Below are positions 27,350-31,183 of a stretch of DNA of 64,000 bases, piece after piece. The DNA is from Fidelibacterota bacterium. GTDB lineage: Bacteria; Fidelibacterota; UBA8477; JABMPR01. Within the stretch, counting starts at the first letter, position 1; every line of letters starts with the position of its first letter. The notes beneath the pieces were generated by a model that searched no databases, had not been told where the DNA came from, and was given only the letters and a program-made list of their open reading frames with translations. The translations under genes were made by a program, and so were the position numbers. The stretch covers positions 23,006 through 87,005 of the forward strand of contig JABMOS010000118.1 in NCBI GenBank assembly GCA_013203185.1. Direction: 5' to 3'.

Positions 27350-27531
27350 GGCGTCATTATGGTTGAGAAAAAAGCAAATTACAACCATTTATTATGGGGT
27401 TCTGTTTCTATAAAGATAATATTATCAATGATCGCCCCTTATTGTTTGTTAGCTTTATTTACTAACTTAAAATAAATATTTATTGGAGATTAAGACCAAT
27501 GAGAAAATTGTAATCTCCGGGATTCTTGGCT

Positions 27532-28212
27532 ATGTTAAACGATATGAGTGGAAAAATAAATACAGCTATCATTGTTGCAGCAGGGAGTGGCAGCAGATTG
27601 GCCAGCGACACGCCAAAACAATTTCTGAAATTGAAAGACGTGGAAATCCTGGCCTATTCTGTTCAGGCCTTCCTGGAGCATCCACAAATAGATGCAGTTA
27701 TTGTTGTCACTTCAGCGGATTATTTGGACCATGTGATCCGTCACTATCCAGACTGCAAAGTGGTGCCTGGAGGCGACACCCGACAAGATTCTGTCTTCAA
27801 TGGGCTGGAGGCCTGCTCGGCATCTACTGATAATGTATTGATTCATGATGCCGCCCGTCCCTTAATTCCTTCCTGGGTTATCGATTCATGTCTGTCCAGT
27901 CTGGAAACGTGTGATGGTGTTGCTCCTGCAATCACGCCTGCTGACTCAATGGTCCAGATTGAGGATTCGGGATTCAGAAACCTCAACCGAGACAGCCTGC
28001 GGATTGTCCAAACCCCACAATGCTTTCACTTGAATATTCTTAAAGCCGCCCATGCATCTGGAAAAGTTGATACTGATGAAATGGGCCTCGTAAAACAAAG
28101 TAATCCGCAAGCCCTCCTCGGTTTCATTGAAGGCGCACCAGAAACCATGAAAGTGACCAGACCCCTGGATCTGGAGATTATTAAGAATTATCTCGATGCA
28201 GCCGAGAAATAA
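27532..28212 (+). CDS. ispD: IspD/TarI-family cytidylyltransferase (2-C-methyl-D-erythritol 4-phosphate or polyol-phosphate cytidylyltransferase)
   Basis: AIIVAAGSGSRLASDTPKQFLKL, GGDTRQDSV, VLIHDAARP and VQTPQCF are IspD-family signatures. Possible starts are TTG 27526, ATG 27532 and ATG 27544. I cannot distinguish IspD from TarI by eye. Confidence 0.8.
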   Translation: MLNDMSGKINTAIIVAAGSGSRLASDTPKQFLKLKDVEILAYSVQAFLEHPQIDAVIVVTSADYLDHVIRHYPDCKVVPGGDTRQDSVFNGLEACSASTDNVLIHDAARPLIPSWVIDSCLSSLETCDGVAPAITPADSMVQIEDSGFRNLNRDSLRIVQTPQCFHLNILKAAHASGKVDTDEMGLVKQSNPQALLGFIEGAPETMKVTRPLDLEIIKNYLDAAEK

Positions 28213-28228
28213 GTAGCCAACACTCTTC

Positions 28229-29293
28229 ATGATGACACCGACCCTCGATTTAGTCTATTCAACGACCAAGGGATATGCCAGTCTACTCCCGCTTTTCTCA
28301 CACATGAAAACCCTGGGTTGGCAGGTGAGACTGGAGAAAGTCCATCGGAACTGTTTTCTGAATAGGCGACTGTTAAAATCGATCTCATCCATGATTGTTA
28401 TCGCATATGATAAACCCCTTGTCCGTCTGGAAAAATGTGGATGGGAAGGTGAGTTTATCTATATCGAGCATGGTCTCAGCCCCATGAAGTATTACACCTA
28501 CAAGTATGAATTCTTTCAGCGAGCTGCCCTCCTTTTTTATCCCGGCGAAGTCTTCAAACGCAAGATGGAAGCCATCAATCCTCAGTTTGTGCGTGGACTC
28601 CTGGGTGGCTATCCCAAGGTGGACGAACTGGTTAATTTGGAGATTAACAGAAATCAATTATGCTTGAGATACGGTTTAAATCCAGAAAAACCTGTCATTC
28701 TTTTTGCCCCCTCCTGGGGTGGCAAGAGGAACAAGAATTCTGGCATTCACAATGCCAAACACCTTTCCTCTCTGGAGAACCTGTTAATTGTTCCCCACTC
28801 CGCAGATTACTCCCTTGCCAAAAAATATGGAGCGGTAAAACCAGGAGATGGCAATATTAATCAGTTCCTCCATCTTGCCAATGTTGTGATTAGTGATATT
28901 TCCTCAGTACTTGCTGAAGCCTCTATTCTGGATAAGCCCGTAGTCCAACTCATCTTACCAGACTATCCAGGATGTTTTCCAGAGATCGAAAAACGGAAAT
29001 CAGGAACCTGGGTCTCTGAGGATGTCCTGGCTAAGGAGCAACGGACAGACCGTTCTAGCCGTCCGTTTAAAATCCCCTATATAGATGAAGACTGGATTAT
29101 GGGGCACACTGCTGAAGCTCAAGATCTGGAGGCAGCGATTCTGGATGCTCTTCAAAATCCTCACAAGTTCGCTGAGCAACGAAAATATTGGGCTGAGCAG
29201 AGCTGCTGGAAAGCTGATGGCAAATCATCAAGCCGGATCAGTCATATGATTGAGCAACTTTTAAAGGATGGTTCAATTACGCAGGTGGCGTAG
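28229..29293 (+). CDS. CDP-glycerol/ribitol glycerophosphotransferase-family protein (TagB/TagF-like)
   Basis: YIEHGLSPMKYY (cf. WHG...K), VILFAPSWGG (cf. ILYAPTWR), LIVPHS, and VISDISSVLAEASILDKPVV (cf. SDYSS...D...kPii). Starts 16 nt after ispD. Confidence 0.6.
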   Translation: MMTPTLDLVYSTTKGYASLLPLFSHMKTLGWQVRLEKVHRNCFLNRRLLKSISSMIVIAYDKPLVRLEKCGWEGEFIYIEHGLSPMKYYTYKYEFFQRAALLFYPGEVFKRKMEAINPQFVRGLLGGYPKVDELVNLEINRNQLCLRYGLNPEKPVILFAPSWGGKRNKNSGIHNAKHLSSLENLLIVPHSADYSLAKKYGAVKPGDGNINQFLHLANVVISDISSVLAEASILDKPVVQLILPDYPGCFPEIEKRKSGTWVSEDVLAKEQRTDRSSRPFKIPYIDEDWIMGHTAEAQDLEAAILDALQNPHKFAEQRKYWAEQSCWKADGKSSSRISHMIEQLLKDGSITQVA

Positions 29294-29420
29294 TAACCAC
29301 CAGTGAAACCTTGTCTTTACAATTTGCTTAATTATATAATCAGGTCCTGAAAATGTGTGATGGGAAATTCATATTGAGTGAAATTTAAATTTTAGGTTTA
29401 TGAAAAATTAAAGGTGTGAT

Positions 29421-30101
29421 GTGAGAGCAATAATTCTAGCAGCCGGTATAGGTTCCCGCCTTGGGAATCCTCGTCCCAAGCCTCTGACTAAACTTTCCAC
29501 AGGGGAAATGATTATGGGCAGACAGGTTGAATATCTGAAACAAGTTGTCTCGGTAGATGACATCTTTGTTGTGATTGGTTTTAAAAAAGACCTCATCATG
29601 GAAGAATTTTCAGAACTGACCTATGTGTTTAATAATGTCTATGACAGAACAAATACTTCAAAAAGCTTGCTGAAGGCCATGCGCAAAGTCAGGGCAGATG
29701 ATGTCATCTGGCTCAATGGTGATGTGGTATTTGATCCTGAAGTACTGGCTAGAGTAGTTGCTTCAAAAACGTCATGCATGGCAGTCAACACCTCGTCAGT
29801 GGCAGAAGAAGAGGTCAAATACACCCTGTCCACCGATGGTTCAATTAATGAAGTTTCAAAAACTGTACAAAATGCCCTTGGTGAGTCCGTAGGTATCAAT
29901 AAAATTATATCCAGTGATGTGCCACTCTTCATAGAGATGCTGGAACGTTGTGATGATAATGATTATTTTGAACGTGGCATCGAATTCGCCATCAATGCTG
30001 GTTTGAAAATTTATCCTGTTGATGTATCAGATGTCCTTTGCATTGAGGTTGACTTCACCGAAGACCTTGAAAAAGCCAACAATGAACTAGGAGAGGCGTG
30101 A
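29421..30101 (+). CDS. LicC-like sugar/alcohol-phosphate nucleotidyl(cytidylyl)transferase
   Basis: MRAIILAAGIGSRLG...PKPL is the N-terminal NTP-transferase signature. Overall collinearity with pneumococcal LicC as recalled. GTG start with AAGGTG upstream. Confidence 0.65.
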   Translation: MRAIILAAGIGSRLGNPRPKPLTKLSTGEMIMGRQVEYLKQVVSVDDIFVVIGFKKDLIMEEFSELTYVFNNVYDRTNTSKSLLKAMRKVRADDVIWLNGDVVFDPEVLARVVASKTSCMAVNTSSVAEEEVKYTLSTDGSINEVSKTVQNALGESVGINKIISSDVPLFIEMLERCDDNDYFERGIEFAINAGLKIYPVDVSDVLCIEVDFTEDLEKANNELGEA

Positions 30102-31183
30102 GCGATTCCTTTTCCAAAACGCTAAAGGTCTTCCAACAATCAAATTTACGCTATACGATGGGCGCTGAATCACTGGTTGGATTTGTGGAAGGTGATATAT
30201 ACAAGTACACCCACAACCTGCGCATCTACCTATTCCCCACTTCTGCCTTTCGACTTGTATTTCTGGCCCTTAAGCTATTAAAGTCAGGTGTTATTTTTAA
30301 ACCCAAATTTAGCCAGGGGCACCTTTATTATAAGCTGAGGTACAAACCGAGTCTCCTGGGTAAGGAATCGACTTTCATTTCCATCACGCCTCTGGAAGCC
30401 ACCAAGGGGGGGTTCGTTGCATTTTTAGGTGGGCATGACACGTTTTTTTCAATCGAAGACCTAAACGAATCCACCCTTAAGAAAATTGAGCTGAATGATC
30501 TCTCGATTATGGCTCCAGCAGCCTACACTAATTTTGAACAAAAATACCGCATGGAATTGATGTCCGGGTTTTACCAGAAACATGAGGTTCAGTTTGATTC
30601 TGAGTCTGAGAAAAAAGCTATCCGCTTCATGCATGAGAACGTGTCTGTAATGACTGAGGCTGGCATTGATTTTTGGATAGAAGGCGGCACCCTTCTCGGG
30701 GCCTTACGCGATAATAAACTAATTCCCTGGGATCATGATCTTGACTTTGGAATGAAGTACGAATCTGAAATCCAAATGAAGCGACTTATTCGAAAGTTAC
30801 GCCGCCATTTTAATGTGAGTGTGAGATCCTTTCCCAAGACCTCCAAAATCTGGCATCTGGGAAACTATCGAGTTCTAAAAATATTTCCACGCAAACACCT
30901 GTTCTTTAAGGAAGATTTGTGTCTAGATCTCTTTGTTTACTACAAGGGCACCCTGCCTGGCAAGGATGAGGTTGTCTACAAATATGTAGTCTGGGACAGA
31001 AATGCCTACCACCGCAAGGAATTCTTTGAAACCACAGATACTCTTAATTTTTATGGCGGTGAGGTGCCCATCCCTGCCAATGCAGAACAGTTTATCGAAG
31101 TCAAATATGGCAAGGATTGGCGAACACCTATTAAGGAATGGAATGTCGCCCTTGATGATGGATCCATTTACAAAGAAGATTAA
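30098..31183 (+). CDS. LicD/fukutin-family phosphotransferase (phosphocholine or polyol-phosphate transferase)
   Basis: [28 protein letters not shown] (LicD/FKRP core with DxD) and a C-terminal [22 protein letters not shown]. GTGA overlap with the LicC-like gene. The ~190-aa N-terminal region has no assignment. Confidence 0.75.
   Translation: [361 protein letters not shown]

Follow-up and report, generated by a model that had tools for sequence, protein, structure and literature searches.

Three neighbouring genes of the window (the whole stretch of 64,000 nucleotides that was analysed) most likely encode a module attaching a CDP-activated alcohol phosphate to the LPS core. Our preferred reading, which we consider probable, is that they form one cassette of the CpsA/CpsB/CpsC kind in the variable slot of a lipid A-core/Kdn operon, and that the ispD gene preceding them is a separate housekeeping gene.

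The window belongs to an uncultured marine bacterium of the Marinimicrobia/SAR406 group, whose genome is 82% complete. The four plus-strand genes described in the sequence-only reading were all recovered, with their motifs and spacing, in the open reading frames and translations (Table 1). The gaps are 16 nt between ispD and the TagF-like gene and 127 nt between the latter and the LicC-like gene, and the GTG start of the licD gene at 30098 overlaps the TGA stop of the LicC-like gene (30099-30101) in the sequence GTGA. The TTG start of ispD at 27526 is uncertain; the true start may be the in-frame ATG at 27532 or at 27544. No terminator-like site was seen in the 127-nt gap. The sigma-70-like match located there could be a weak candidate for an internal promoter, the total number of matches (21, shuffle expectation 17.6) not being above expectation.

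Table 1. Features of the locus (window coordinates)
Feature	Position	Strand	Basis or remark
799-aa gene, divergent	24989..27388	-	conserved across the genus as left neighbour of ispD
ispD, 2-C-methyl-D-erythritol 4-phosphate cytidylyltransferase	27526..28212	+	TIGR00453 match, sole genome copy
TagB/TagF/CpsA-like CDP-alcohol phosphotransferase, single domain, 354 aa	28229..29293	+	PF04464
Promoter match, sigma-70-like TTGTCT-18-TATAAT (weak candidate)	29311..29340	+	inside the 127-nt gap; top of 21 scan matches
LicC/PntC/IPCT-type cytidylyltransferase (NTP3)	29421..30101	+	PF12804, 59.7 bits
FKRP-like LicD-family phosphotransferase, two domains	30098..31183	+	PF04991, 43.7 bits (cut-off 22.6)
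GT29-like sialyltransferase homologue	31187..31819	+	PF00777, 57.7 bits; right frame of the variable slot
CMP-nonulosonate synthetase, NeuB-like synthase, Kdn-9-P phosphatase-like HAD, GT30 (KdtA-like)	32803..36343	+	family profile matches

The TagF-like protein scores 41.9 bits with PF04464 (cut-off 22.1), has the TarB primase as its top NCBIfam match and contains the motifs IEHGLSPMK, LFAPSWGG and SDISS. Its AF2 model (pLDDT 92.8) matches the fold of TagF (3l7m, E 1.5e-11, TMq 0.60-0.63) as well as those of Cps3D and TarL, and H81, H190, APSWGG and S222/S225/S226 are invariant across 50 homologues. In the LicD-family protein (AF2 model pLDDT 90.9), whose translation contains the core [27 protein letters not shown], the C-terminal domain (approximately residues 165-361) carries the WDHDLD sequence and was assigned as catalytic; D212, D214 and D216 are invariant. 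The N-terminal part (approximately residues 1-160) is a degenerate LicD-like repeat with no DxD motif, the two halves aligning with an hhalign probability of 94% (E 1.5e-7). The likeness to FKRP noticed earlier was confirmed, human FKRP (6kaj) being the best relative of solved structure both by sequence (E 5e-9) and by fold (9e-9). All four proteins pass the curated family cut-offs. For each of the two transferases the homologues form dozens to more than 160 conserved clusters, which shows that they are real genes and not chance open reading frames. Families and folds agree with the proposed CDP-alcohol-using decoration module, in which a LicC-type cytidylyltransferase is joined by two phosphotransferases not homologous to each other.

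Outside the phylum NTP3 is paired with the TagF-like enzyme: of 65 loci of other phyla carrying NTP3 orthologues (47-64% identity), 57 have a TagF-like gene no more than 300 bp away, and in none of these 65 loci is IspD adjacent. The coupling of the LicC-like gene to licD suggested by the sequence-only reading was borne out, a licD gene being located within 300 bp in 12 of 15 Marinimicrobia-like loci. In L012 and L013 the TagF-like, NTP3 and LicD genes are present with no IspD within 10 kb. We propose that NTP3 is the CDP-alcohol donor synthase for both transferases.

In an alternative form of the cassette (G061, G077, G117, G004, G177 and others) a cytidylyltransferase-SDR fusion gene stands by the TagF-like gene. 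The IspD domains of these fusions score 178-188 bits with the IspD equivalog model, above or just below its cut-off; that of G061, the only fusion compared with solved structures, best matches the TarI type (3f1c, 5e-35; 4jis, 1.5e-32). The TagF-like proteins adjoining the fusions, from five genera or families, form one clade (SH-aLRT 98), and the LicD proteins fall, with 100/100 support, into two groups, one found with the LicC-like gene and the other only with fusions. Where both donor genes occur (G022), the TagF-like protein is of the fusion type and the LicD of the LicC-associated type. It is thus the LicC-like gene or the fusion with which the transferases co-vary, and not the stand-alone IspD that the sequence-only reading had paired with the TagF-like enzyme.

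The properties of IspD itself point the same way. The search for a second ispD showed that the gene of the window alone exceeds the cut-off; the genome has the MEP pathway, ispF having been found. IspD scores 196.5 bits with TIGR00453 (cut-off 181.3) and 168.6 bits with PF01128, but with the TarI model NF001183 it reaches only 94 against a cut-off of 166. Its closest solved structures are true IspDs (1vpa, 2.7e-28, versus 3e-16 for TarI 4jis), and it retains the residues that bind CTP and MEP. Within the genus it forms a vertically inherited clade that mixes all slot types, while the cassette is swapped. As the first gene of the plus-strand run ispD forms the conserved left frame of the slot, preceded by the 799-aa gene, which keeps its position at 66-92% identity in L052, L053, L055, L056, L062-L064, L066, L067 and L070. 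The slot of congeners holds either a TagF-like gene, an IspD-SDR fusion and licD, or plain glycosyltransferases; in relatives without a TagF-like gene, GT2, GT4, DUF6716 and sulfatase-family genes follow ispD. Judged from its sequence, IspD would most likely be the housekeeping MEP-pathway enzyme of the cell and not the donor synthase of the cassette. It marks the edge of the slot as a constant frame gene and is probably co-transcribed with the cassette.

One count stands against this. A TagF-like gene was found in 24 of the 201 genomes of the phylum, and in all 24 its immediate neighbour, in either order, is an IspD-domain gene; this adjacency is more than expected from chance placement and counts against our preferred reading. 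It would fit a bifunctional sole IspD, also considered in the sequence-only reading, which makes both CDP-ME and a CDP-polyol (CDP-ribitol or similar) for the TagF-like enzyme and leaves the LicC-like enzyme to serve LicD only. In the same direction point the overlaps of at least 4 nt along tagF, ispD, NTP3, licD and GT29 in G007, and the 91% complete genome G037, which has window-type TagF-like and LicD genes; a LicC-like gene was not found anywhere in it at E<=1e-15, which leaves IspD as the sole alcohol-phosphate cytidylyltransferase of its locus. Moreover, G161 and G177 have no IspD domain other than that of the SDR fusion adjoining the TagF-like gene, despite the presence of ispF, and L010 likewise has a sole-copy fusion, with dxr on its contig. 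Dual use of an IspD domain thus probably exists in the clade. For the stand-alone enzyme of the window, however, bifunctionality is improbable, given its TarI score, its vertical descent, the slots that it borders without a TagF-like gene, the NTP3-TagF pair conserved across phyla without it, and a genome in which the best match to a fusion-type reductase has 29% identity.

The sequence-only reading overlooked the LPS-core/Kdn operon around the module. The KdtA-like gene (the sole GT30 copy in the genome by tblastn with KdtA), the Kdn synthesis genes and the GT29-like gene share one gene run with the cassette, and the distal block in Table 1 is the predicted LPS inner-core/Kdn part of the operon. 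The GT29-like gene keeps its place on the right-hand side of the cassette in every locus type compared. The cassette fills a variable slot inside an LPS inner-core/Kdn operon. In other Marinimicrobia families the TagF-like gene lies directly 3' of lpxL-sua5-msbA, tight linkage to msbA, lpxL and kdtA being seen in several of them, and in Flavobacteriaceae the orthologous pair is flanked on one side by a GT9 gene and on the other by a Kdo-kinase-family gene. This gene context suggests Kdo or Kdn on lipid A-core as the acceptor. We consider it rather unlikely that the module decorates some other target, such as a Kdn-containing capsule or a protein glycan. GT29-like and PNGase F-like genes in or beside the locus, the latter hinting at glycoproteins, would agree with such a target, as would the orthologue in Firmicutes, found in nonulosonate or flagellin-type glycosylation islands with CDP-alcohol phosphotransferases and the TagF-like FtaD of C. 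difficile, which modifies a flagellin glycan (bioRxiv 10.64898/2026.02.12.704994). Against it stand the linkages just described and the absence from the locus of Wzx/Wzy, an ABC exporter and an oligosaccharyltransferase. For the polymer exporter previously listed as missing, the simplest candidate is MsbA, acting on lipid A-core.

As to the alcohol, whole-genome searches bore out the absences noted earlier: the 82% complete genome yielded no TarJ-type or fusion-type SDR reductase, TagD or choline kinase (LicA, PF01633), and no PEP mutase (TIGR02320). CDP-sn-3-glycerol is doubtful as donor, less likely than expected. The family profile of NTP3 matches PntC (6pd1, 2e-16), LicC (1jyk, 8.5e-16) and IPCT (2xme, 7e-13), all over the full length. 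A classical LicC/LicD phosphocholine or PntC-type aminoethylphosphonate decoration would be in keeping with the two best of these matches and with the EamA/DMT transporter gene of the locus. LicB, the choline transporter of the lic system, belongs to the EamA/DMT superfamily. The EamA gene, however, occurs also in slot types without a LicC-like gene, in a Paenibacillus locus a separate PEP mutase-nucleotidyltransferase fusion beside the orthologue covers the PntC role, and choline kinase and PEP mutase are the enzymes missed above; we regard this decoration as very improbable.

With the single protein as query, the only full-length matches to characterised enzymes were IPCTs (2xme, 4mnd), and NTP3 scores 52 bits with NF041135 over residues 1-223. 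NTP3 might accordingly be a CTP:myo-inositol-1-phosphate cytidylyltransferase and the module install inositol phosphate on the core glycan. A 54% identical orthologue in G063 adjoins myo-inositol-1-phosphate synthase (MIPS) among three TagF-like genes, but the IPCT of that cluster could instead be its second nucleotidyltransferase. In G134 two CDP-alcohol phosphatidyltransferase genes come after a 35% identical relative. A MIPS (67% identical) is also encoded by the genome of the window; it lies on a different contig in an inositol-lipid cluster, and MIPS is adjacent in none of 80 genome loci. With the family profile ranking PntC and LicC above IPCT, we hold this assignment to be unlikely. Among the possible alcohol phosphates we would tentatively name a glycerol phosphate isomer first; myo-inositol-1-phosphate and a phospho-amino acid or amino alcohol come next, equally and each unlikely by itself, another polyol phosphate is less likely still, and phosphocholine is highly improbable.

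Under the preferred reading of a CpsA/CpsB/CpsC-kind cassette, NTP3 would join CTP and the alcohol phosphate to CDP-alcohol. The small TagB-like enzyme, the proposed primase, would then put the first alcohol phosphate on Kdo or Kdn of the lipid-linked core in the cytoplasm, and the FKRP-like LicD would add at least one further unit or decorate a second site. Flipping of the product together with lipid A-core would make a dedicated polymer exporter unnecessary.

Several known systems can be compared with this arrangement. Bcs1/Acs1 of Haemophilus influenzae and TarI/TarJ are CDP-ribitol synthases, and TarL/TarK are TagF-like. The congener IspD-SDR fusions share the architecture of Bcs1/TarIJ and adjoin a TagF-like enzyme, but their domains score close to the IspD model and are the sole ones in the MEP-bearing G161 and G177, and the genome of the window has neither such a fusion nor the reductase. 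The CDP-threonine pathway of C. difficile, FtaB/FtaD (bioRxiv 10.64898/2026.02.12.704994), can be set alongside by description, as a nucleotidyltransferase and a TagF-like enzyme placing a single phosphodiester-linked head group on a glycan; there the acceptor is flagellin O-GlcNAc, and FtaA and a methyltransferase take part. It shows that donors of TagF-like enzymes are not limited to polyols.

In the animal ISPD/fukutin/FKRP pathway CDP-ribitol feeds two successive phosphotransferases (Gerin et al. 2016, PMC4873967). An IspD-family gene neighbours the cassette here as well, and the congener fusion with two transferases mirrors the animal layout; the model scores, by contrast, mark the IspD of the window as a true MEP enzyme, which is probably not the donor synthase. 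The LicD shares the W-D-x-D-x-D catalytic motif with FKRP, its nearest solved relative (6kaj-6kan), but has the degenerate repeat in place of the FKRP stem domain. One of the two transferases is of the TagF and not of the LicD fold, and the acceptor would be a bacterial glycolipid.

The closest counterparts are CpsA, CpsB and CpsC, the 'transition transferases' of Actinobacillus pleuropneumoniae group 2 capsules, which act in the cytoplasm on a lipid-linked Kdo glycolipid (Litschko et al. 2024, PMC11666461). Cps7B makes the CDP-glycerol donor, Cps7A (PF04464) transfers Gro3P from it onto beta-Kdo, and Cps7C (LicD, PF04991) polymerises Gro3P (PMC11666461). No capsule polymerase follows here, the LicD has the additional degenerate repeat, CDP-sn-3-glycerol is doubtful as donor, and the LicC/PntC/IPCT-type cytidylyltransferase is not homologous to CpsB/TagD (TagD-type GCT). 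The context is a lipid A-core/Kdn operon with an alpha-Kdo transferase homologue, in place of the KpsS/KpsC poly-beta-Kdo anchor. The order is nevertheless the same in both: a PF04464 TagB-like single-addition transferase, a cytidylyltransferase and a PF04991 LicD-family transferase.

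The four genes lie in one transcriptional direction, and what the sequence-only reading had observed of them was confirmed: the gaps of 16 nt and 127 nt are both present between the ORFs, the GTGA overlap is present between the LicC-like gene and licD, all the motifs that it had quoted were found in the translations, and curated models concur with its family calls for all four proteins. In a consensus scan the 127-nt gap contained a promoter-like and no terminator-like site; there was no statistical enrichment, and this is weak evidence. All functions discussed below are predictions read from homology, fold and gene context.

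Coordinates of the genes and loci studied. G, L and C numbers denote genomes of the phylum, loci and contigs, respectively; positions without a prefix are window positions.
Feature	Location	Strand	Remarks
Gene of the 799-aa protein	24989-27388	-	no Pfam match at default threshold
ispD (protein 1)	27526-28212	+	TIGR00453, 196.5 bits (cut-off 181.3)
TagF-like gene (protein 2)	28229-29293	+	PF04464 Glyphos_transf, 41.9 bits vs 22.1, partial match
LicC-like gene (protein 3, NTP3)	29421-30101	+	NTP_transf_3 PF12804, 59.7 bits
licD (protein 4)	30098-31183	+	PF04991, 43.7 bits vs 22.6, N-terminal core of profile only
Second licD/LicC-like pair, same genome	C110:11478-12889 (L076:11478-12889)		about 10 kb upstream of window start
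lpxL-sua5-msbA block, same genome	C80:6384-9605
MIPS cluster, same genome	C46:17966-21391
ispD, TagF-like gene, licD of G037	L066:7499-10480
Locus of IspD-like paralogue, G121	L068:3403-13700 (contig C63)
431-aa IspD-SDR fusion, G161	L059:10077-11372		Bcs1-like architecture
431-aa IspD-SDR fusion, G177	L058:6823-8118		Bcs1-like architecture
431-aa IspD-SDR fusion, L010	L010:11146-12441		Bcs1-like architecture
MIPS/TagF-like cluster, G063	L074:221-6598
TagD-type genes, Flavobacteriaceae	L098, L104, L106, L111, L112, L125, L132, L135, L138, L139; about 7200-7700		39-44% identical to B. subtilis TagD (probe approximate)
Glycosylation island, Paenibacillus haidiansis	L094:1586-13929
NeuB-like gene just beyond the island	L094:13910-14965

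AlphaFold models of the TagF-like and LicD proteins were confident (pLDDT 92.8 and 90.9, respectively). The PF04464 match of the TagF-like protein spans profile positions 161-290 only; its closest solved structure is the TagF-like capsule polymerase Cps3D, and the AF2 model matches the folds of TagF, Cps3D and TarL over its whole length (with TagF 3l7m, E 1.5e-11, TMq 0.60-0.63 over approximately 400 columns). H81 and H190 were invariant among 50 homologues. H190 aligns with a conserved histidine of Cps3D and TarL in profile matches that span only residues 125-241, and H81 is the putative counterpart of H444, which with H584 constitutes the catalytic/pyrophosphate-binding histidines of TagF. 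For the LicC-like protein the closest solved structures were LicC and IPCT, and its family profile gave full-length matches to LicC, PntC and IPCT, the fold family being common to all three. Human FKRP was the top match of the LicD protein by sequence and by fold, followed among the fold matches of the model by the nucleotidyltransferases LnuA and ANT(2''). This protein has two domains: D212, D214 and D216 of the catalytic DxD(xD) motif are invariant, and the N-terminal part, up to about residue 160, is a degenerate duplicate of the catalytic LicD domain from which the DxD motif is gone (hhalign of the two halves, probability 94%, E 1.5e-7).

After licD the run of plus-strand genes continues with a GT29-like gene, followed by one antisense EamA gene; beyond it lie the genes of a CMP-nonulosonate synthetase, a NeuB-like synthase, a Kdn-9-P-phosphatase-like HAD protein and a KdtA-like GT30, the latter being the sole copy in the genome. 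The homologues carry the labels Marinimicrobia, Neomarinimicrobiota or FCB group. The source genome is a 3.07-Mb assembly of 82% completeness, thus absences are provisional. Within the genus the frame (799-aa gene on the minus strand, ispD, a slot of variable content, GT29, antisense EamA, Kdn genes, KdtA) was constant, and four slot contents were found. The TagF-like, LicC-like and licD genes occupy the slot in the window and in G081 and G010, the TagF-like gene and licD in G037. In G061, G077, G117 and G069 the slot holds a TagF-like gene (45-48% identical), a gene of a 431-aa fusion between an IspD-type cytidylyltransferase and an SDR, and licD (35-38%). Only GT2, GT4, DUF6716 or sulfatase-family genes were present in G053, G073 and G121 and in G016 and G041 of neighbouring taxa. 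Because the frame is constant, ispD stands at the edge of the slot with all four contents.

The gene of the 799-aa protein keeps its place next to ispD in the whole genus, and its product is 66-92% identical there. In the G037 locus there is just a 120-bp gap at the position where the LicC-like gene is expected. In G121, a congener lacking the TagF-like gene, a separate glycan locus encodes an additional IspD-like protein, a divergent paralogue that scores 109 bits on TIGR00453; genes of an SDR and of a NeuB-like protein lie within approximately 5 kb of it.

Gene neighbourhoods and phylogenies point to the LicC-like enzyme as partner of the two transferases. All TagF-like proteins encoded beside an IspD-SDR fusion form one clade (support 98) that extends over five genera or families, and the LicD tree is split (100/100) into a LicC-like-associated and a fusion-only group. 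Both donor genes are present in G022, where a fusion-type TagF-like gene lies beside the fusion and a LicC-type licD beside the LicC-like gene. When species-representative genomes were scanned with the LicC-like profile and the best 80 loci were taken, 65 of them belonged to other phyla (Flavobacteriaceae, Bacteroidales, Desulfovibrionaceae, Paenibacillus/Cohnella and others; 47-64% identity). Within 300 bp of the LicC-like orthologue a TagF-like gene was found in 57, and a CDP-alcohol phosphatidyltransferase gene in 5, of these 65 loci, and the LicC-like gene and licD co-occur in 12 of 15 Marinimicrobia-like loci. We conclude that the LicC-like enzyme is probably the donor synthase for the TagF-like enzyme and, from the translational coupling and the 12/15 co-occurrence, that it probably serves LicD as well. 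In G007 the tagF, ispD, LicC-like, licD and GT29 genes overlap by at least 4 nt each. The window's own contig carries a second translationally coupled pair, in which a short licD (219 aa) precedes the gene of a LicC-like NTP_transferase (251 aa); compared with the window proteins the products show 25% and 29-32% identity, and many genomes of the phylum have similar pairs of a short licD and a nucleotidyltransferase gene.

The sequence-only reading had paired IspD with the TagF-like enzyme and had suggested that IspD, if the only copy in the genome, might serve both the MEP pathway and the glycan. A genome-wide search indeed found one ispD above the cut-off only, in the 82%-complete genome, and ispF is present (contig C37). 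The TagF-like gene occurs in 24 of the 201 genomes of the phylum and has an IspD-domain gene as direct neighbour, in either order, in all 24; moreover, G037 (91% complete) keeps the window-type TagF-like gene and licD with no LicC-like homologue found anywhere in the genome. Against these points, ispD is a frame gene also where the slot holds only glycosyltransferase-type or sulfatase-family genes, the TagF-like and LicD trees group by adjacent donor gene and not by taxonomy, and IspD was adjacent to the LicC-like orthologue in none of the 65 loci of other phyla. The protein itself passes the equivalog cut-off of TIGR00453 and scores 94.4 bits on the TarI model NF001183, below the cut-off of 166; its nearest solved structures are true IspDs (T. 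maritima 1vpa, 2.7e-28), with TarI-type enzymes at 1e-13 to 1e-16. It keeps R20, K27, D106, R109, T140 (as S), R157 and K213 (approximate numbering, as the E. coli reference was approximate). A residue-level split between IspD and TarI was uninformative, the CTP/MEP-binding residues being kept in stand-alone IspDs and SDR fusions alike. ispD was found in 189 of the 201 genomes, mostly as a single copy, and in the IspD tree the window protein falls into a genus clade (SH-aLRT 97) in which all slot types are mixed, indicating vertical descent. In two loci, L012 and L013, the TagF-like gene, the LicC-like gene and licD occur with no IspD within 10 kb. We conclude that the window IspD is most likely the housekeeping enzyme at the edge of the slot and a bystander to the module. 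With IspD a vertically inherited frame gene and the cassette co-varying with other donor genes, the proposed pairing was not borne out, and it is unlikely that the stand-alone IspD of the window also feeds the glycan.

Elsewhere in the clade dual use of an IspD domain is likely. The SDR fusion beside the TagF-like gene is the only IspD domain of G161 (94% complete) and of G177 (92% complete), and ispF is present in both; for the L010 fusion the scope is the contig, on which dxr is located near the fusion. The IspD tree indicates that such fusions arose at least twice. In G061, the one fusion genome tested that keeps a separate ispD, the fusion has, as judged by sequence, drifted toward TarI (144 bits on the TarI model; best solved relatives the TarI-type 3f1c and 4jis), and on this model lower scores (97-106 bits) were obtained for the L010 and G161 fusions. 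The sole-copy fusions are thus candidates for a single domain serving the MEP pathway and supplying CDP-alditol to the adjacent TagF-like enzyme, and they would permit a clean test of such dual use of one cytidylyltransferase domain. That one IspD-type domain is common to isoprenoid synthesis and glycan decoration, with the window IspD also feeding the TagF-like and LicD enzymes, is very improbable. If true, both CDP-methylerythritol and CDP-alditol would be products of the fusions of G161, G177 and L010, supply of the two transferases by IspD would be most plausible in G037-type loci, and the donor could be CDP-methylerythritol itself, which would lead to an LPS core carrying methylerythritol-phosphate.

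The sequence-only reading had listed TagD, LicA and TarJ as missing from the locus. Searched for in the whole of the 82%-complete genome, TagD (TIGR01518, and an approximate B. subtilis TagD probe) and choline kinase LicA (PF01633) gave no match, and PEP mutase was not found either. For TarJ the claim stood as far as the search reached, which covered the SDR type: the best match to the fusion-type SDR reductase in this genome was 29% identical, not a close homologue. Phosphocholine was rejected on the choline kinase result, and a phosphonate donor on that for PEP mutase; in the Paenibacillus locus PEP mutase is fused to a nucleotidyltransferase of its own. CDP-glycerol was favoured at first, as it needs no precursor gene and has precedents in CpsABC and in the Gro-P-Kdo of P. 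gingivalis, TagD being absent. CDP-sn-3-glycerol was downgraded, and is now considered less likely, because a TagD-type gene stands beside the LicC-like orthologue, just upstream of the LicC-like/TagF-like pair, in 10 flavobacterial loci that also have licD. These are 10 of the 12 loci with a same-strand licD just upstream of the orthologue, which suggests that flavobacterial TagD serves LicD and that the LicC-like enzyme makes a different donor for its TagF-like partner; TagD and LicD look like an add-on to a conserved pair.

An inositol-phosphate head group was also considered. In G063 (family f6) MIPS (PF07994, 350 bits) lies on one strand among three TagF-like genes, and one of the two nucleotidyltransferases of this cluster, beside MIPS, is a 54%-identical LicC-like orthologue, making it a candidate inositol-phosphate glycan locus. 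The window's own genome encodes a MIPS too, but in an inositol-lipid cluster on another contig, and MIPS was adjacent in none of the best 80 loci, so MIPS adjacency, seen in G063 only, was rejected as a general rule. The donor of C. difficile FtaD is CDP-N-methylthreonine (bioRxiv 10.64898/2026.02.12.704994); the donor range of TagF-like enzymes therefore exceeds polyols, and we assign rough odds only and name no alcohol.

On C46 the genes after MIPS encode a CDP-alcohol phosphatidyltransferase (DG..AR..G...D...D motif), a small membrane protein and a polytopic membrane protein of 324 aa; the arrangement resembles, in a Marinimicrobia genome, an inositol-lipid cluster of the Bacteroides type. 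The P. haidiansis locus is a nonulosonate-type glycosylation island with a 60%-identical LicC-like orthologue. Its gene order is sulfatase-family, PEP mutase-nucleotidyltransferase fusion, phosphonopyruvate decarboxylase, PsrA-like Fe-ADH (TIGR03405, 376 bits), LicC-like orthologue, CDP-alcohol phosphotransferase, CMP-sugar synthetase, ATP-grasp and HAD, and it appears to combine phosphonate with CDP-alcohol chemistry.

From gene context lipid A-core is the putative acceptor: the operon contains the sole GT30 homologue together with the Kdn genes, lpxL-sua5-msbA directly precedes the TagF-like gene in families f7, f12 and f14, and in Salinimicrobium catena the orthologous LicC-like/TagF-like pair is flanked by a GT9 gene and a Kdo-kinase-family gene. 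In the window's genome the lpxL-sua5-msbA block is on a different contig, hence in this family the position of the module with respect to msbA has changed. As the donors are nucleotide-activated, all module enzymes appear to be cytoplasmic, and MsbA would export the product. The locus indeed has no polymer exporter, as the sequence-only reading had pointed out, but export by MsbA would explain why it is missing.

For the SAR406/Marinimicrobia, bacteria that are abundant in the ocean and uncultured, the locus predicts an LPS core with Kdn and a phosphodiester-linked head group. It also displays a slot of exchangeable content, for which at least three alternatives were found in a single genus; variation of this kind is produced by phage and grazer pressure. 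The most useful leads are the sole-copy IspD-SDR fusions and the cross-phylum pair of a LicC/PntC/IPCT-type cytidylyltransferase and a small TagF-like transferase, which is widely conserved and uncharacterised. In cultured Flavobacteriaceae the pair is located in LPS-core loci, and knock-outs and LPS chemistry are feasible there. Cultured flavobacteria such as S. catena, Winogradskyella wandonensis and Polaribacter sp. Hel1_85 encode LicC-like orthologues of 55-64% identity.

The earlier designation of the locus as a decoration module holds for its phospho-alcohol type, but the module is better described as a CpsA/B/C-like cassette in an LPS-core/Kdn operon, with IspD as a probable bystander. 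In Actinobacillus pleuropneumoniae, Cps7A (PF04464) transfers Gro3P from CDP-glycerol to beta-Kdo and does not accept Neu5Ac, Cps7B synthesizes CDP-glycerol, and Cps7C, of the LicD family, polymerizes Gro3P (PMC11666461). The window trio of PF04464 protein, cytidylyltransferase and PF04991 LicD has the same order as cps7A-cps7B-cps7C and runs in one direction, whereas its cytidylyltransferase, unlike CpsB, is of the NTP_transf_3/LicC type and not TagD-type. Within the FCB group such chemistry exists, as a glycerol-phosphodiester-Kdo has been reported in the core of P. gingivalis (Paramonov 2009, as cited in PMC8003790), where genes have been identified for few of the enzymes that assemble the core (PMC8003790). 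The LicC-like/TagF-like pair provides candidate genes for phosphodiester substituents on Kdo, such as the Gro-P-Kdo of P. gingivalis.
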